DNA from: a virus
Lineage: Duplodnaviria; Caudoviricetes
Length of the DNA: 58,409 bases
Virus record (IMG/VR): IMGVR_UViG_3300029319_000050
Span: 1-58,409 of that record
Reading direction: 5' to 3' (one strand)
The position numbers and the translations under genes are program-made. This document shows, in pieces, positions 18,899 to 38,159 of this stretch; position 1 is the first letter of the stretch; every line of letters starts with the position of its first letter. The notes beneath the pieces are model-generated. The model searched no databases, was not told the DNA's origin, and saw only the letters and a list, made by a program, of their open reading frames with translations.

Positions 18899-19148
18899 CT
18901 TGTATTACTACTGACTCAAATATCTTTGTTTCGCCTGTATCTGAAAAACCCTCGTATGAGTCTATATCTGCAAATTCTTTTTTCCAGACCCAAAAATTTT
19001 CATATTTTAAATGGTCTTTTAAATCTTCATCAGCAAAACTATTTATTTCATAATCAGTTAATTTAATTCGTACATCAACTTGACTAGCATCAAGTTCGCA
19101 CTCGTTTTTCAATTCATTTAATCTATCAATTAGATTTTGTAGGTTCAT
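18888..19148 (-). CDS. Early hypothetical protein
   Basis: Start taken at MNLQNL (AGGAGGAG RBS). Confidence 0.65.
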   Translation of the reverse strand: MNLQNLIDRLNELKNECELDASQVDVRIKLTDYEINSFADEDLKDHLKYENFWVWKKEFADIDSYEGFSDTGETKIFESVVIQGGG

Positions 19149-19446
19149 CTTCTCCTCCTTGCTCGAAATAATCTGCGTTATCACTTGTTATACCTTGATA
19201 TTTATCAGGTAGTTCTTCTACTAAACTTAATGCTATTAGTTCCTCTTCATGTGGATCTAAATATATGGTTACTAAACCAGACCATCTTACATAAACAAAA
19301 CAACTTGGTGCTACTTGGTAAACGTCATTTACAAAAGTTTCTAGTTTAAGAGGTTTCTCAAAAGCATTTAATACAAAGTATGTTGCTTGACCGTAATCTG
19401 GGAATGTTAAATTTTTAACCATCTTTCTTAAATAAACCGTCTTCAA
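19126..19446 (-). CDS. Early hypothetical protein
   Basis: ORF overlapping its neighbours in an operon; start uncertain (probably MVKNL). Confidence 0.6.
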   Translation of the reverse strand: MKTVYLRKMVKNLTFPDYGQATYFVLNAFEKPLKLETFVNDVYQVAPSCFVYVRWSGLVTIYLDPHEEELIALSLVEELPDKYQGITSDNADYFEQGGEDEPTKSN

Positions 19447-19840
19447 GTTTACCTGTACGTTTACTAATCACTTTATAAACTTCGTTCATCGTATATCCAG
19501 GATTAAAACCTAACTGTTTACAAAGTACAATCAAACATACAAAACAATCACCTAGTCCGTCAATAATATTAGGTTTATCTTTATAGGCGATAGCTTTAGC
19601 AGTTTCACCAACTTCTTCTACAAGTTTTAACATCTGCATAGTTGGTTGTACATCTTCGTTTAATAGACCACGATCCTCTGCCCACTCGATAATATTAGCG
19701 ACTGCTATATCTTCACGCTCTGGGCATATATCTTTTAATGGGATAGGGATCGTTACTAAAGGCTCACCTTCAATTAGCCTATCTTCTTCTACTTGATAAT
19801 TAGGTTCATCTCTTTCCATATTAACTTCCCATAAATGCAA
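19415..19840 (-). CDS. MazG-like nucleotide pyrophosphohydrolase
   Basis: WAEDRGL...QMLKLVEEVGETAKAI...IIDGLGDCFVCL...VYKVISKRTGKLEDGLFKKD. Confidence 0.85.
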   Translation of the reverse strand: MHLWEVNMERDEPNYQVEEDRLIEGEPLVTIPIPLKDICPEREDIAVANIIEWAEDRGLLNEDVQPTMQMLKLVEEVGETAKAIAYKDKPNIIDGLGDCFVCLIVLCKQLGFNPGYTMNEVYKVISKRTGKLEDGLFKKDG

Positions 19841-20225
19841 ACTGCATCATAGGCTCTTCATCATAGCCTTTTTCCATAAACTCTATTTCAGCAGTCATTT
19901 GTTCTAAATCTAAAGGGTTATCGGCTAATGCACCTGTTTCATAATCGAAACCTGTAATAATACCGATCCCTGCATAAGCGTTATTGACCGTATGCGACAT
20001 ATCTTTAAATCGCCAATACCTTTGGTTACTATGTAATAAACCATTATCGTCTAACATAACTTGTAAATATTTTGACGGAACTTTATCACATGGGTAATCA
20101 GTCATAGTAACTGTATCACATTTAATAACATGGTATGCCCAATCGAGAGAGTTATCGTTTGGCATTTTTTGTTTTAACACTGTTTGGTCAACAGGGTTAA
20201 CTACATAAACATCTATTTCTTTCAT
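19821..20225 (-). CDS. Hypothetical protein (DUF3846-like)
   Basis: VVNPVDQTV...LDDNGLL...YAGIGIITGFD...G pattern. Confidence 0.6.
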   Translation of the reverse strand: MKEIDVYVVNPVDQTVLKQKMPNDNSLDWAYHVIKCDTVTMTDYPCDKVPSKYLQVMLDDNGLLHSNQRYWRFKDMSHTVNNAYAGIGIITGFDYETGALADNPLDLEQMTAEIEFMEKGYDEEPMMQFAFMGS

Positions 20226-20264
20226 AATTTTCTCCTTTCTAAAAGTTGTTTACTTACATTATTT

Positions 20265-20301
20265 ATAATAAAAAACAATAAACCGAATGTAAAGCCATTA
20301 A
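20265..20301 (-). promoter_or_regulatory. Early promoter family member
   Basis: TTAATGGC-TTTACA-N17-TATTAT. Confidence 0.7.
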
Positions 20302-20310
20302 ACAGTAATT

Positions 20311-20463
20311 AAAAGTGGTGGTGTGATCTTTAAGGGTATTATGAAAAACAGATATTTGGAAAACAAACTACAAACCAAATATCATGGGGCATTGCACTCA
20401 AAGATCACTTTTATACAATAAGCTTCCACCATCACTTAACGGAGGTATGCAAACCACCCCAAA
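20311..20463 (-). ncRNA. Candidate structured RNA (~150 nt, three nested stems)
   Basis: Stems 20313-20323/20427-20437, 20323-20331/20400-20408 and 20351-20359/20375-20383; ends in a U-run. Confidence 0.5.
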
Positions 20464-20700
20464 CTACCAAAACTTTTTCTCCTCCTTTCTTTTAATTAAT
20501 CCCATTTGGACATGGATATCTTCTAATATTTCTTTTGCGTACTTACGTTTAGTCAACGGTTCCATGTCTTCTAGTATTTCAATATGATGTAATAAAGGTT
20601 TCCAATTACGTTCGTAAATCCTATCTAATGGCTTAACTTTATATTGCCATTTAATAATACTACCATCGTCACTTTTTAAATTACCTTGCATTAACACCAA
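20464..20700 (-). CDS. Early hypothetical protein
   Basis: ORF in an operon; start probably MQGNL. Confidence 0.65.
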   Translation of the reverse strand: MVLMQGNLKSDDGSIIKWQYKVKPLDRIYERNWKPLLHHIEILEDMEPLTKRKYAKEILEDIHVQMGLIKRKEEKKFW

Positions 20701-20885
20701 GCCTCTTTTATCACTTCATCGTTTTTACGTTTATCGTGATATTGTTTTACTATCTTACCGTCACTATAATAAAGCGTTACATAATCATCCCCTGCACGGT
20801 ATTCACGTGAAGGAAGATTATGTTTCTCATAATTAAGTTGTTCTCGTCTAGCTTCTAATCTAGCAACTTGATCTGGATATGCCAT
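20691..20885 (-). CDS. Early hypothetical protein
   Basis: AGGAGA RBS directly after the large structured element. Confidence 0.75.
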   Translation of the reverse strand: MAYPDQVARLEARREQLNYEKHNLPSREYRAGDDYVTLYYSDGKIVKQYHDKRKNDEVIKEAWC

Positions 20886-20899
20886 AATAATTTTCTCCT

Positions 20900-21364
20900 A
20901 AAAAAGTGTGGCTTATCAATCTCGGTATGCAATTGTTTTAATTGACTAACTTAGCTCTCCCTTATGACCTTTGAGAGTACCACTTGCTAGTTTTGTTTAA
21001 CGTAAAGGACTAGCAACCCATACAACCTCCTATTTTTACTTACAGAGAGTCATGCAAGTTGTGAGGTGCCTGATGAAAAAGTAGGGAGACACCTCACGGT
21101 TGGATATGATCTAGTGATGGTTTCTAGCACTTATTCTAGTTTCATCTCAGACCGACATCTACATTATTCTTGAAGGGAATGCAGTCAGGATTTACAGAGC
21201 TCATTCTCATATCCTATTTGTGTGGGCTGTTGGAGTATCACGATGACCTTTAAATGGTAAGACTCCCCTTTAACAGAATACAAATGGGAACCTTTCATAG
21301 TCAGGCTTTATATCGTGGAAGGCTCAGTAACAGCTAATTTCACCTTCACCCCTCGCACACAAAA
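20900..21364 (-). ncRNA. Candidate large structured non-coding RNA (~465 nt)
   Basis: ORF-free gap with higher GC than other intergenic regions; many nested helices and multiway junctions; ends pair (GUGUG/CACAC) before a U6 run. Confidence 0.65.
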
Positions 21365-21365
21365 C

Positions 21366-21563
21366 TTATCTACCAATAGTCTCTAAATCGTTTTCAGTAA
21401 TATATTGGTAAGCTCCTTTATTATACACTGGAGCAATCTGTTTACGTCGTTGGGTAGCAACTTCTTGAGCTAGTATTTCACCGCACTCTAAACAAGTATT
21501 TCTACCTAATGCCCATCGACCTCTATCGACAGGCTCGTCACATAATTTACAAAGTCTTTTCAT
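21366..21563 (-). CDS. C4 zinc-finger protein (TraR/DksA-finger-like)
   Basis: CKLC-DEPVDRGRWALG-RNTCLEC; C-term APVYNKGAYQYI. Confidence 0.65.
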   Translation of the reverse strand: MKRLCKLCDEPVDRGRWALGRNTCLECGEILAQEVATQRRKQIAPVYNKGAYQYITENDLETIGR

Positions 21564-21593
21564 AATTTTTTCTCCTAAATAATTACTATATAA

Positions 21594-21630
21594 ATAGTAA
21601 ATACCATTTAACCGAAAGTAAAGCGATTTA
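21594..21630 (-). promoter_or_regulatory. Early promoter family member
   Basis: TAAATCGC-TTTACT-N17-TACTAT. Confidence 0.75.
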
Positions 21631-21987
21631 CCTAAAGCGATTTATCGTATTTTTCATAGGTTTTTTAAACTGTGCTATCGCCCTACCTTCGTGTAGTTTT
21701 TGTACAGCTCTACTTGCTGCTGCATATAAACGTATTTGTTGTATATATTTAGCTTCGTTTTCTTCAGCCATCCTCAATATTTCTGGATCTACACTATGTT
21801 CGTCGTAAGAACATGCGTACTCGTTTATTCTATCTTCATATTCTGGAACAACTTTTTCAGATTTAGGTCGTTTAACAGCTTCATTTTTGCATTTATCACT
21901 ACAATAAACAATTCGACGTTTATGTCCTAAACCTGTGGGTATTTCTTTGTAACAAACATTACAATATCTAATACCGTCAATTATCAT
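21628..21987 (-). CDS. Zinc-ribbon protein
   Basis: CNVC...YCSDKC; start moved to ATG 21987 because the longer start overlaps a terminator. Confidence 0.6.
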   Translation of the reverse strand: MIIDGIRYCNVCYKEIPTGLGHKRRIVYCSDKCKNEAVKRPKSEKVVPEYEDRINEYACSYDEHSVDPEILRMAEENEAKYIQQIRLYAAASRAVQKLHEGRAIAQFKKPMKNTINRFR

Positions 21988-22003
21988 TTTAATAACCCAA
22001 TAC

Positions 22004-22032
22004 AAAAAAGCCCCATACTTAGATGAGGCTTT
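22004..22032 (-). terminator. Intrinsic terminator
   Basis: AAAGCCTCAT-loop-ATGGGGCTTTTTT. Confidence 0.85.
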
Positions 22033-22098
22033 CGACTTCTATTTGAGGAGGATAATAGATTATTGTCTTTTATAATCATACCTAAAACAACAATATTG

Positions 22099-22479
22099 TC
22101 AACCCTCATCTTGTAGCACAATAGCTTCGATAGCGTCTTGTATAGGGGTGTTTTTAGTTACCTCTACCTTATCGTTAAGGAAGACCTTATCGACGCTTAT
22201 ATAAACCTCTGGGTCTATTACAGGATCGTTTTCGATCTTTTTATACATTTTACCGTCGATATAAACTGTCTTTACCTTAGTAAGTGCTTGTACTAACTTG
22301 GTAACAAGTTCAATATTTTCTGCACTCGAAGGCATAATATATTCACCTCTAAGTTTAACAGCAATCGTCGGTCCACGTTTTTCTATCTTATAATCAGATA
22401 GCTTTGGGTGACGAGTATCCTCGTCTTGACCGTGTGCATCAAATGCACTAGGGTCGTAATCATCTGGGAATGTAACCAT
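22099..22479 (-). CDS. Early hypothetical protein
   Basis: AGAAAGGAGA RBS, own promoter and terminator. Confidence 0.8.
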   Translation of the reverse strand: MVTFPDDYDPSAFDAHGQDEDTRHPKLSDYKIEKRGPTIAVKLRGEYIMPSSAENIELVTKLVQALTKVKTVYIDGKMYKKIENDPVIDPEVYISVDKVFLNDKVEVTKNTPIQDAIEAIVLQDEG

Positions 22480-22515
22480 TTAATTCTCCTTTCTAAAAAA
22501 TTAATAACTATATAA

Positions 22516-22552
22516 AGCATATAAAACAAAGTAAGCAAAGTAAAGCGATTTA
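22516..22552 (-). promoter_or_regulatory. Early promoter family member
   Basis: TAAATCGC-TTTACT-N17-TATGCT. Confidence 0.7.
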
Positions 22553-23032
22553 CTACTTAACGATTCTTAAATGCTTTCTTCTTGCTTCCGACTCAAGTTT
22601 GCGATTGTAATCGTAATATTCTTTATATGAATAATTGTCTACTTGGTTTATAACCATTTCGTATAATACGTCAGTAAACCATCCTCGAGTTGAAAGAAAA
22701 TCTGCACTGGTTTTTAAACCTGCATGTCTAAATAATTGTTCTGCTGTAATTGGATTTGGATAACAACCTAATTTGTTTAAAACATGTTGTCGTAATAACC
22801 ATTCCTGGATACCAAGTTCATCTAATACTGGTAAATGAAACCAACCACTATGAATAATTATTTGTTGCGTTATAGGATCTAGATCTGATATTTCATAACC
22901 TTCTTCATTAAACTCTGGAGTACCTTCGTAAGTGAATAAGTTCTCCCAATCATCAACTTCAGATAGGTCGTAATCTAGTATAACTTTGTCGTCCTTCATC
23001 ATGCCTCTTGGTGAACGAAATATCACATCCAT
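22553..23032 (-). CDS. Early hypothetical protein
   Basis: 159-aa ORF. Confidence 0.7.
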   Translation of the reverse strand: MDVIFRSPRGMMKDDKVILDYDLSEVDDWENLFTYEGTPEFNEEGYEISDLDPITQQIIIHSGWFHLPVLDELGIQEWLLRQHVLNKLGCYPNPITAEQLFRHAGLKTSADFLSTRGWFTDVLYEMVINQVDNYSYKEYYDYNRKLESEARRKHLRIVK

Positions 23033-23068
23033 GATACTTCACCACCAAGAGGTTTGTAAAATGAAGTC

Positions 23069-23413
23069 TTAGCTAACAACTTCTAAGATACCTTCATCTA
23101 AGAATCTTTTCTTATAAAACCTAAAGATTCTCAATGGGCTTTGGGTAGTAGTTAGAATGCCTTCTTTAAAAGCATACTCCATCAACTCACCAACGTTAGC
23201 TTGTTTACCCTTGAAGGTTTCTAATGCTTCTAGGATAGACCACATTTGGTTAGGTAGATTAGCAGTAGCGTCTGGCTCTTGCTTAATCCTAACCGTTAAA
23301 GACTCGATTGTAGATCTAGTCTTCTTTACAGGTGCAGGTATTGCTACCTTGCCTTTTGCCTTTGGGGCTTTTGCGACAACTTTAGTGTCGACTTTTTTCT
23401 TAGCTTTTGCCAT
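23069..23413 (-). CDS. Winged-helix-like DNA-binding protein, paralog 3 (Lys/Ala-rich N-terminus)
   Basis: PNQMWSILEAL...LTTTQSPLRIFRFYKKRFLDEGILEVV; histone-H1-like tail. Confidence 0.65.
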   Translation of the reverse strand: MAKAKKKVDTKVVAKAPKAKGKVAIPAPVKKTRSTIESLTVRIKQEPDATANLPNQMWSILEALETFKGKQANVGELMEYAFKEGILTTTQSPLRIFRFYKKRFLDEGILEVVS

Positions 23414-23453
23414 AATATTCTCCTTTCTAAATTAAGTTAACAAAAACAATTTT

Positions 23454-23490
23454 ATAGTGCCTTACAATAATATGAAAGTAAAGCCATTAA
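23454..23490 (-). promoter_or_regulatory. Early promoter family member
   Basis: TTAATGGC-TTTACT-N17-CACTAT. Confidence 0.7.
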
Positions 23491-23501
23491 ACAGTGGAGA
23501 G

Positions 23502-25187: not shown

Positions 25188-25580
25188 TTATATAAGAATA
25201 TTTTTAAGTAACATATTCCAATCTTCTTCAGTGTATTGTGGCTGCATTTCATACAAACAAGGGGTAGAAGATAAACCCCCTTCTAATAAAGATCTAAATT
25301 GATTGCCATCGTATAAACGTATCCATTTATTTTTATCATGTTGGATTAATGAAAAAACTTTACCACCTGAAGCCATACGTTTAAAAGACCAATTACATTG
25401 GAAGTTAGAAAACTTTATTTTATTACCTCTAGCTATTTTTAGTTCTAGCCAAAACTCTTTTGATTGGATACATCCATTCACATCTGGTGTACCTTGAGTC
25501 ATCGGTGACTCGACTCTTTGCCAATGTACTTGCGGTATATGTTTTCTAAGTGATTGGTATAAGGTTGTTTCTTTAGGCAT
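25188..25580 (-). CDS. PD-(D/E)XK nuclease (VRR-NUC / Holliday-junction resolvase-like)
   Basis: RVES...GTPDV...FWLELK...Q..W. Confidence 0.8.
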   Translation of the reverse strand: MPKETTLYQSLRKHIPQVHWQRVESPMTQGTPDVNGCIQSKEFWLELKIARGNKIKFSNFQCNWSFKRMASGGKVFSLIQHDKNKWIRLYDGNQFRSLLEGGLSSTPCLYEMQPQYTEEDWNMLLKNILI

Positions 25581-25884
25581 AAGTTGTAAAGTCTTTATTA
25601 TTTAATGCTATCTTTACACCTTTTTCTTGTAACCATTGTTTAAATAAAACTTTAGCGTCTTGTTTAGCTTGGATTTCTGTTTTATATTCACGTGCTAATT
25701 TTCTGCCTGCATAGTAATCACCACCACTAATCCTACAACAACTAATTATTTGATGTACTCTTTGTTTAGTTATATTGTATTGATTACCTATTTCTTCATA
25801 AGTTTTTCCTTGTTTATGAAGTTCATACATTTCTTTATATTGGTTGGCTTTAGTTATTCTTAGGTTTTCTTCTATTCCTTGCAT
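25573..25884 (-). CDS. HTH protein (sigma-70 region 4-like)
   Basis: GKTYEEIGNQYNITKQRVHQII. Confidence 0.75.
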   Translation of the reverse strand: MQGIEENLRITKANQYKEMYELHKQGKTYEEIGNQYNITKQRVHQIISCCRISGGDYYAGRKLAREYKTEIQAKQDAKVLFKQWLQEKGVKIALNNKDFTTYA

Positions 25885-36722: not shown

Positions 36723-38159
36723 ATGAAATATAAATTTAAAACTGTGCCTTATGAGCACCAATTAAAAGCACTCAAAGAAAGCTGGAATAAGCCTTCTTAC
36801 GCTTATTTTATGGAAATGGGTACAGGTAAATCTAAAGTGCTCATCGATAATATAGCCCTTTTGTATGATAGAGGAGCCATAAATACAGCTGTTATTATTG
36901 CACCTAAGGGTGTATATCTAAACTGGTTAGATAAAGAAATACCTAATCATATGCCAGACCATGTAGAAACATATATAGCTTTATGGAAAGCCTCACCAAC
37001 TAAAAGAAAACAAGAGGCTTTAATGAAACTTTTTACAGAAAAAGATAAATTAAGGATTTTAATAATTAATGTAGAAGCTTTTTCATCACAAAAAGGTAAA
37101 GCGTTCACAGAAAAGTTTGTTAGGTCTACGCAATGTTTATTAGCTGTAGATGAAAGTACAACTATTAAAAATCCGAAAGCAGCAAGAACTAAAAATTTAT
37201 TAAAAATTGCTGACTATGCAAAATTTAAAAGGATATTAACAGGCTTTCCGATTACTAAATCACCTATGGATTTTTACACACAGTTTAAATTTTTAGATAC
37301 ACACATATTAGGCTATCAATCTTTTTATGCATTCCAAAACCACTTTGCAGAGGTCATTCAAAGGTCAATAGGGTCTCATAGCTTTCGTGAAATAAAAAGT
37401 TTTCGTAACTTAGACGAACTAAAACGTCTTACACAAGCCTATAGTTACAGGGTTTTAAAGAAAGAATGTTTAGATTTACCTGATAAAATTTATAACAAAC
37501 ATTATGTAGAACTAACCCCTGAACAAAATAAATTATATAAACAAATGAAAAAAGATGCGATGGCTATCTTAGATCAAGAAACAATTACAGCTACATCTGT
37601 CATGACACAATTATTAAGATTACATACGATGATATGTGGTTTCGTTAAAACAGACCAAGATGAAGTTATAGATATAGATAATAATAGATTAGATGCATTA
37701 TTAGAATTAGTTTCGTTTATGGACGGTAAAGTAATTATATGGGCTAATTATATCCATAATATCGAAAGAATTACCGAAGCACTTAAAAAAGTTTATGGAG
37801 GTGATAGTGTTGTTAGTTATTATGGTTCTACTAATTTAGATGATAGAAAAGAAGCAATAAAATTATTTCAATCTGAACAAGAACACCCTAGATTTTTTGT
37901 AGGTAATCAAATGACTGCAGGTTATGGTATTACGTTAACGGAAGCTAACAACGTAATTTATTATTCTAATAGTTTCGATTTAGAAAAAAGATTACAGTCA
38001 GAAGATCGAGCTCACCGTATAGGACAAGTTAATAAAGTTACTTATTATGATTTAACAGCTAAAGATACAATAGATGAAAAGATTGTTAAAACGTTATGTT
38101 CTAAACACGATTTAGCTAAACAAGTTTTAGGTGACGGTTATCAGTCTTGGCTTTCTTAA
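36723..38159 (+). CDS. SNF2-family (SF2) helicase
   Basis: PYEHQ, MEMGTGKS, VDEST.IKN, LTGFPI, GITLTEA, QSEDRAHRIGQ. Confidence 0.92.
   Translation: MKYKFKTVPYEHQLKALKESWNKPSYAYFMEMGTGKSKVLIDNIALLYDRGAINTAVIIAPKGVYLNWLDKEIPNHMPDHVETYIALWKASPTKRKQEALMKLFTEKDKLRILIINVEAFSSQKGKAFTEKFVRSTQCLLAVDESTTIKNPKAARTKNLLKIADYAKFKRILTGFPITKSPMDFYTQFKFLDTHILGYQSFYAFQNHFAEVIQRSIGSHSFREIKSFRNLDELKRLTQAYSYRVLKKECLDLPDKIYNKHYVELTPEQNKLYKQMKKDAMAILDQETITATSVMTQLLRLHTMICGFVKTDQDEVIDIDNNRLDALLELVSFMDGKVIIWANYIHNIERITEALKKVYGGDSVVSYYGSTNLDDRKEAIKLFQSEQEHPRFFVGNQMTAGYGITLTEANNVIYYSNSFDLEKRLQSEDRAHRIGQVNKVTYYDLTAKDTIDEKIVKTLCSKHDLAKQVLGDGYQSWLS

Follow-up and report, generated by a model that had tools for sequence, protein, structure and literature searches.

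In a phage genome from IMG/VR, a non-coding gap downstream of a small zinc-finger gene appears to yield an abundant, modular transcript, the 3' domain of which is a motif absent from Rfam, supported by covariation and common to distantly related marine phages. The genome is virus record IMGVR_UViG_3300029319_000050 (Duplodnaviria; Caudoviricetes), rated 99% complete; all of its 58,409 nucleotides (nt) were analysed and are called the window here. The finding is narrower, though in one respect better, than what an initial annotation had proposed from the sequence, namely one large structured RNA of about 465 nt. The gap is described here as a series of four modules, A to D; the conserved 3' domain is module D. 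Its parts, all to be read on the minus strand, are the following:

20886-21365, minus strand: intergenic gap of 480 nt, free of open reading frames (ORFs), which holds the whole feature; from the ORF list, stop counts and G+C content
20908-20983, minus strand: module D, a three-way junction, followed by the U tract; from alignments A2 and A3 and model R1
20979-20983 / 20908-20912, minus strand: helix P1 of module D; from model R1
20973-20977 / 20955-20959, minus strand: helix P2 of module D; from model R1
20940-20946 / 20915-20921, minus strand: helix P3 of module D; from model R1
20967-20969 / 20924-20926, minus strand: loop-loop contact of module D, 3 base pairs (bp); from covariation between the P2 and P3 loops
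20900-20905, minus strand: U tract of six U, 2 nt after P1; putative 3' end of the RNA

The structure of module D is documented by compensatory changes. Fourteen copies were aligned (A2) and yielded model R1; pairs were counted on the 13 distinct sequences. The 18 nested pairs form in 95.7% of the cells and 8 of them are changed on both sides, a result that none of 500 shuffles reaches, with slid controls at 31-50%. Upon inclusion of the three loop-loop pairs, pairing rises to 96.3% of 271 cells, with both sides changed in 10 of the 21 pairs; the covariation score is again reached by 0 of 500 shuffles, and slid controls are at 32-51%. The loop-loop contact pairs in all 13 sequences, be it as GGU/ACC, GGC/GCC or AGU/ACU, and its columns lie outside the structure of model R1, the alignment not having been fitted to them. 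P1 does not vary in the alignment. The loops and junction bases are near-invariant, while the stems show compensatory change. Such changes, by which a conserved structured non-coding RNA is recognised, are seen in module D and in the arm type 2 cassette of module A (see below). The initial annotation had staked its proposal on covariation; it exists for the roughly 76 nt of module D and for the swapped arm cassette, not for modules B or C. The strand, too, can be read from module D: three of its G-U pairs are invariant and would turn into A-C mismatches on the plus strand, and the RNA sense is therefore the minus (gene) strand, as had been favoured initially. By these measures module D appears to be the only supported RNA motif within the gap and a conserved functional unit.

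The invariant centre of the P3 loop (20924-20939; columns 74-79 of A2) is part-palindromic, over 4 nt in the window and over 6 nt in three other variant types. It could allow loop-loop dimers between two RNAs.

Module D recurs in unrelated marine phages. A 20-mer from the 3' module led to four further viral contigs with differing gene neighbourhoods, and a structure-aware pattern to 16 places in viral contigs, 15 of which are D by the model. The remaining one, in locus L062 (loci carry L numbers), was rejected by the model; it stands directly behind an ORF, amid G+C-rich letters, and appears to be a chance hit. Overall, D was found in 14 contigs with six gene contexts. When 436 kb (the window and 57 loci) were searched with R1, 18 matches were obtained, all of them known copies, as several contigs are held as more than one locus. 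There is one copy per contig and no second one in the window, and five further, larger records contain exactly one copy each. The placement of D is always the same: it closes, on the 3' side, a non-coding stretch of about 110-480 nt, and a start codon on the same strand follows 20-40 nt further on. The genes downstream are mutually unrelated; they comprise GP88, DUF3846, Kyano_Gp96, phrog_1987 and several without a family. The core of D is identical in the window, L059 and L060, although the DNA polymerase of L060's record is only 31% identical to that of the window; in two other records the polymerase identity is 29-30%, and the terminase of L064's record is 34% identical to the window's. D is thus conserved far beyond the proteins of its phages, a pattern that usually marks a direct interaction with a conserved partner. 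Being small (about 76-95 nt), it is suited to immediate biochemical work.

The distribution has its limits. In the cultured relatives HTVC027P, HTVC023P, DSL-LC04 and 023Pt_psg01, D is absent (best score E 0.46). Cellular genomes gave 30 pattern hits, all chance by the model (the best with 17.8 bits, E 0.42), and a 20-mer scan of cellular genome contigs gave 0 matches. Against deposited phage genomes the gap had no match, and an 8-kb query found only 86 nt there, in another gene, of Methylophilales phage Melnitz. None of the modules other than D recurs outside the zinc-finger context in the scans of viral contigs and metagenomes.

Some surroundings of D in other contigs deserve mention. No promoters were called upstream of D in L066, L065 and L064; a promoter read by eye in L063, L065 and L066 reached only 8 of 12 matches and was dropped. 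In L063, L065 and L066, several hundred nt before D (e.g. L066:200-500) are poor in ORFs, with C/G-rich pentamer-like repeats and a purine-rich G/A run of low complexity; the stretch could represent the end of a genome or a region of early control. L058 has a non-coding stretch of about 310 nt (oriented 2648-2957) upstream of the 136-amino-acid (aa) ORF that precedes D. At its end a helix closes a long element, after which come a U run and a ribosome-binding site, a layout like that of D with a sequence unlike it.

Evidence for a transcript comes from RNA libraries. A run search with 20600-21650 (a query of 1051 nt) returned 20 runs from 10 studies with part of the query; 14 of the runs are on record as RNA, and most contain about a third of the query words or fewer. 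Four RNA runs from four studies (X1, X5, X6 and X9) were compared over 19000-23500. Run X1 holds a contig of 418 nt that equals 20935-21352 with zero differences, run X5 one of 432 nt over 20914-21345 and run X6 one of 419 nt over 20936-21354. These three contigs, from three studies, lie with their entire length inside the gap and have no loose end. Run X9 contributes variant pieces. All contigs of these runs fall within 20906-21354, save a 48-nt piece with 7 mismatches at 23103-23150; of course, bare flanks prove nothing. The ends of the X1 and X6 contigs agree within 1-2 nt (20935/20936 and 21352/21354), where DNA contigs (window, L053, L002) continue past, and this is a weak hint of discrete RNA ends. 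The extent covered is:

20914-21354, minus strand (taken from module D): minimum extent under the RNA contigs, as the union of X1, X5 and X6

We read this as good but indirect support for an abundant transcript of at least 441 nt (20914-21354) from the gap. The transcript envisaged initially is favoured insofar as contigs confined to the gap occur in RNA libraries, whereas contigs give neither its strand nor its ends. Pelagiphage-type phages are thought to be among the most abundant viruses of the ocean. An RNA from a phage gap that assembles in small ocean RNA libraries of several studies would rank among the more abundant viral transcripts there.

The gap itself does not code for protein. 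It lies between two minus-strand genes:

21366-21563, minus strand: zinc-finger gene, 65 aa, C4, upstream of the gap; served to gather relatives
20691-20899, minus strand: ribosome-binding site (20895-20899) and 64-aa ORF (20691-20885) after module D

The ORF-free gap of the initial annotation is borne out: over its 480 nt the longest ORF has 37 aa, and the minus-strand frames contain 15, 7 and 16 stops. A hidden or recoded ORF is ruled out by these 7-16 stops in every frame and the shortness of the longest ORF. Equally rejected is a pseudogene origin: to the ORFs that relatives have behind their zinc-finger gene, tblastx revealed no translated similarity, returning only nucleotide-level relatives, all frames alike. 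The G+C content is 0.385-0.415, as compared to about 0.30-0.35 in the flanks. The six U at 20900-20905 of the minus strand and both short direct repeats that had been pointed out (repeat families D1 and D2) are present. A 9-nt motif repeated in modules A and B was considered as well; its 5 copies in the window, as opposed to 1.4 expected, were reached in 2 of 100 shuffles, which is too weak, and it was dropped.

How the gap is built becomes evident from its relatives. With the zinc-finger protein as a probe, 42 loci in viral contigs were gathered, of which 39 were examined. An ORF follows the zinc-finger gene within 2 nt in 18 of the 39 and after 83 nt in another 10. Six loci have a gap of 172-197 nt, only L005, L006 and L007 have one of 484 nt, and two (L002 and L004) end inside a window-like gap. 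The modules upstream of D are:

21215-21360, minus strand: module A; closing helix 21217-21224/21356-21363; absent from L003
21239-21317, minus strand: variable arm of module A (arm type 1); in L002, L005 and a contig of run X5 a 65-nt cassette (arm type 2) stands instead
21100-21214, minus strand: module B; closing helix 21102-21109/21207-21214; in the window, L002, L003 and L053, not in L005
20984-21099, minus strand: module C; hairpins 21061-21071/21087-21097, 21038-21044/21053-21059 and 20984-20991/21009-21016; absent from L003 and L005

The boundary between B and C is good to about 5 nt. Over the gap, the metagenome scaffold L053 agrees with the window at 99.6% identity. For L002 the overall identity is 88%, and the other arm is present inside its module A. 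L003 is without 21215-21360 (module A) and without about 20984-21099 (module C), both with clean boundaries. The L005 type keeps the 5' 50 nt of module A (100%), its 3' 23 nt and a diverged 3' end, the middle 285 nt being unrelated; the 50 nt are 100% identical though the zinc-finger protein is only 78% identical. The comparison presents the gap as a mosaic of four separately closed modules with, apparently, no core that every version shares except the 3' end. Since L003 is without A and C, and L005 has kept nothing but the core of A and a diverged D, the 465 nt are not one conserved RNA class, and the new multi-domain class of the initial annotation is not supported.

All relatives that carry module A keep the 50 nt at its 5' side and the 23 nt or so at its 3' side unchanged; homologues of this core are few, and scans of viral contigs and metagenomes for further copies of A and B gave the same few contigs only. 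The arm is another matter. Both of its variants are present as RNA contigs in run X5, where the swapped version, with its joint at 21229/21316 and 65 letters between, occurs beside a window-type contig. The arm type 2 cassette recurs in L060, an unrelated phage contig, inside a different non-coding module. Among its three copies 96.1% of the cells pair, 4 of 17 pairs are changed on both sides, and the base stem is rebuilt with other letters. The copies are located at L060:5682-5750, L002:3245-3313 and L005:3246-3314, and in L060 a 6-nt direct repeat is found on the flanks of the cassette, which there looks like a small mobile stem-closed insert. Module C offers a single case of variation, a 7-nt loop deletion in L002. 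A hairpin in the gap of L059 and L060 shows a compensatory change and recurs beside D in an RNA contig of run X9. Stem-closed modules that are gained, lost and swapped so cleanly are a natural example of structured RNAs assembled from parts.

The main helices that had been named are there: 20984-20991/21009-21016 is a perfect helix of 8 bp, 21061-21071/21087-21097 has 11-nt arms that are 91% paired, and 21102-21109/21207-21214 and 21217-21224/21356-21363 are present. Not all of the proposed pairings, however, are kept in relatives. The hairpin 21116-21146 has its outer 4 bp broken in L002 and L003 without compensation, the plus-strand arm of 12 bp (21212-21223/21278-21289) uses the segment that is swapped for another cassette in L002 and L005, and the terminal long-range helix misses its 5' partner in L003, which has no module A. 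These observations bear on the idea that the approximately 465 nt make up, from end to end, a single large class of structured multi-domain RNA, folding as a unit and working as a scaffold or sponge. RNA contigs cover modules A to D in one piece, local helices are many, and the G+C content is raised across the whole gap. Yet the fold energy is at shuffle level (see below), close relatives do without A and C or have B and C wholly replaced, the long-range closing helix is not conserved, and only D recurs beyond the zinc-finger context. We consider such a unitary RNA improbable.

Nor do we give much credit to the opposite view, that the gap is an ordinary intergenic mosaic without any RNA function of its own, i.e. 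decayed or recombined spacer with a terminator-like 3' structure, the RNA signal being a nuclease-resistant fragment or carried-over DNA. The z-scores of folding are indeed weak, the full gap is narrowly distributed, an indel-rich mosaic is typical of hyperplastic regions of phages, and contigs are no proof of transcription. A mere spacer, however, would hardly contain a domain that is identical in phages with about 30% identical polymerases and compensates its stems around invariant loops, nor 50 nt of module A that are 100% conserved next to a gene with 78% protein identity; and translated similarity to ORFs at the same position in relatives is missing.

The explanation we favour, and to which we give about an even chance, is a stable phage non-coding RNA that finishes at its 3' side with the D domain, by which a conserved partner would be bound. 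The RNA would be read in the gene sense (minus) over at least 441 nt (20914-21354), would probably start close to the stop codon of the zinc-finger gene and probably end with the U tract 20900-20905 after D. Because no promoter was found, it may be cut from a longer transcript. D and the U tract would form and protect its 3' end, so that it could accumulate far above the neighbouring mRNAs. The near-invariant loops and junction of D, held by the loop-loop contact, would be the surface for the partner, which might belong to the host or the phage, be a protein or a small ligand, and be bound in trans during infection. Modules A-C would be lineage-specific accessories that are gained, lost and partly swapped. 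Ends, stability, partner and action in trans are what we infer; the discrete contigs in RNA libraries, the structure and strand of D and the gain, loss and swap of modules are what the data show. That D is present in a single copy, extremely conserved across unrelated phages and followed by unrelated genes, suggests a function of the RNA itself and not the control of one gene.

A bolder version can be imagined. D could be a new class of aptamer with a loop-loop clamp for a conserved small molecule or host protein, a single-copy mobile module very highly expressed by unrelated marine phages, and could serve as a decoy or sponge (e.g., to capture a nucleotide signal or a host factor that binds RNA), or else as an early-gene switch. 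The swappable upstream modules would then be further binding units and the whole a combinatorial multi-aptamer. We regard this as a rather long shot.

A function in cis is the main rival and has to be weighed more seriously, doubtful as it appears to us. D might be a cis-acting 5' leader, riboswitch-like or a protein-controlled attenuator, in which, once folded, P1 and the U tract stop transcription ahead of the next gene; the abundant RNA would be the terminated leader and modules A-C its passengers. All 14 aligned copies of D indeed have a same-strand ribosome-binding site and start codon about 20-40 nt downstream, a U run follows in 11 of the 14, D is a single-copy element, purine-type aptamers are likewise built as three-way junctions whose loops contact each other, and the RNA contigs extend to D, none being seen past it. 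However, the downstream genes belong to unrelated families without a common pathway, a conserved alternative (anti-terminator) pairing was not found, and the terminator scan was negative. In a compact phage genome, moreover, almost anything is placed just before an ORF, and 300-400 nt of extra structured modules before D would remain unexplained.

The stable, trans-acting RNA that we prefer has to face a number of objections, which we collect here. D invariably stands a short way ahead of a start codon on its own strand, as would equally be expected of a cis-acting leader, and 3 of the 14 aligned copies have no U run. The consensus scans disclosed neither a promoter-like site ahead of the RNA nor a terminator at 20900-20985. 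As in an intrinsic terminator, a U run directly follows a helix, six U being found 2 nt after P1, but a simple G+C-rich hairpin with a short loop is missing, as the helix before the U run closes a three-way junction of 76 nt. The RNA data are assembled contigs, which reveal no strand, no true ends, no abundance and no proof of transcription. Carried-over DNA in the RNA libraries is not formally excluded as their source. Some contig ends are probably assembly breaks at polymorphisms, because 21345 is 30 nt past the point of the arm swap and 20935/6 coincides with an A-run indel of L053. The covariation of D reflects perhaps five or six independent lineages, and the alignment used to count its nested pairs had been fitted to the model. 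Although five diverged copies of D each yield the same P1, P2 and P3 in their own minimum free energy (MFE) folds, which speaks for the structure, the z-scores are only -0.08 to -1.44. Modules B and C, with few homologues and no support from covariation, vary only in loops or break one helix. Finally, the MFE of the whole gap is -119.2 kcal/mol on the minus strand (z -0.97), and 20 of 100 shuffles are as good.

The plus strand is no better off, with -114.2 (z -0.35; 34 of 100 shuffles as good). The description of the gap as folded almost end to end accordingly does not rise above chance, and the comparison with shuffles that the initial annotation had named as a check leaves the whole-gap fold at shuffle level. 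Taken singly and compared with 300 shuffles each, the modules have z-scores of -1.82 (A; 14 of 300 as good), -0.80 (B), -0.62 (C) and +0.24 (D); module A is the only one whose fold approaches significance.

Among known RNA families the gap has no counterpart. None of the 4227 models of Rfam 15, which include GOLLD, ROOL, HEARO, IMES, RAGATH, hammerhead, twister, riboswitches, 6S and RNase P, had a match at gathering score in the window. This agrees with the initial expectation, as does the lack of tRNA and tmRNA genes (0 in the window by ARAGORN). A permissive scan, with E up to 10, produced 4 weak matches in 20700-21600 (the best with 22.1 bits). It gave 1 for L005, and for 8 D-bearing loci together 2 that were unrelated; D itself had no Rfam match in any locus. 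The best is an alignment of module C (20975-21102, minus) to RAGATH-19 (RF03096), weak though over the full length of the model. With E 0.6 and a gathering score of 85.6, it was treated as chance; it was reproduced neither in L005 nor in 8 other loci.

The same match is one of the few points that can be raised for modules as RNA-processing elements by which a polycistronic transcript is cut, be they nuclease entry sites or a self-cleaving ribozyme of a new kind. Since a promoter was not found, the RNA may be excised from a longer one, and natural hammerheads, too, combine a three-way junction with contact between loops. No known ribozyme family scores even at E 10, however, the RAGATH-19 score is far under the gathering score and its match absent in L005, and an RNA contig of run X9 continues past D, on either side, into other sequence. 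We think this explanation very unlikely.

Purine-type “tuning-fork” aptamers (RF00167) are P1-closed three-way junctions with two hairpins, the loops of which pair. D shares with them the P1-closed junction, the contact between L2 and L3, the place in a leader before a gene and a nearby U tract. In contrast to them, it does not match the covariance model, its loops are far larger (12 and 18-19 nt), its first junction is far shorter (1-2 nt), its P1 abuts the U tract, and the genes downstream are unrelated small phage genes instead of genes for purine metabolism or transport. The resemblance thus appears to be one of build only; the family model and the gene association fail.

Phages are known to encode other structured RNAs. 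The stable RNAs of the T4 tRNA cluster accumulate, as the RNA of the gap may do; near the gap, however, there are no tRNA genes. The put RNAs of HK022 consist of two stem-loops and act just downstream of promoters on the transcribing polymerase, whereas D is a three-way junction, and a sequence relation is not claimed. PeSL cassettes of T4-type hyperplastic regions occur in many copies per genome, one before each variable gene, unlike D, which is present just once in the window and just once in every one of 5 further records. GOLLD and ROOL are highly expressed. Both are large non-coding RNAs of phage genomes with no function assigned (bioRxiv 10.1101/2024.12.08.627333). The RNA of the gap is like them only in being a large non-coding phage RNA. 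It differs in having no Rfam match, in being shorter and in lacking a conserved architecture over its whole length; its modules are dispensable, and only a domain of about 76 nt is conserved.

According to the relevant passages of a survey of IMG/VR, viral contigs contain 8,495 candidate structured RNA motifs, many of which resemble terminators or have a gene start no more than 25 nt downstream (PMC10690425). D is of the same general kind, comes from the same collection and may already be among these candidates without a name. Unlike for D, no expression evidence for a D-like motif is given in those passages. A keyword search of the literature retrieved no description of this RNA nor of non-coding RNAs of pelagiphage-type phages, but such searches prove little.

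An antisense guide, as considered in the initial annotation, finds no support within the phage genome, in which the longest opposite-strand matches are 12 nt (E 1.3). Nor is co-transcription with the zinc-finger gene supported. As to the “TraR-like” nature of that gene, the zinc finger stands, while the label is backed by a sole weak match to phrog_54 (DksA-like zinc finger, E 0.0016) and none in Pfam. The 64-aa ORF on the other side of the gap (20691-20885) is kept in L053 and L056 and has no family match.

The window encodes a large terminase, a portal, a family-A DNA polymerase, a primase and helicases, nearly all of its genes being on the minus strand. Its terminase is closest to those of Phage DSL-LC04, phage 023Pt_psg01 and the Pelagibacter phages HTVC027P and HTVC023P. 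The identity of 53-57% suggests, therefore, that the source is an uncultured marine relative of this group.

Some minor observations concern the wider neighbourhood. A second gap without ORFs on the gene strand (20226-20463; 238 nt, no ORF of more than 26 aa) is found 660 nt downstream, ahead of DUF3846-like and MazG genes; of the promoter-like sites in the region, the best one (20293-20265 on the minus strand, with 10 of 12 matches) falls inside it. A terminator-like hairpin, 22006-22033 on the minus strand, with 11 pairs followed by a U run, stands after the ORF 22099-22479 and is the only canonical terminator called on the gene strand within 19500-23500. A protein of 103 aa (25573-25884, minus) matches sigma-70 region 4 (Pfam PF04545, 25.3 bits at a cut-off of 24.1) and may be a small phage transcription factor. 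A helicase gene of 478 aa (36723-38159, plus) is the sole long plus-strand gene in the otherwise one-way genome.

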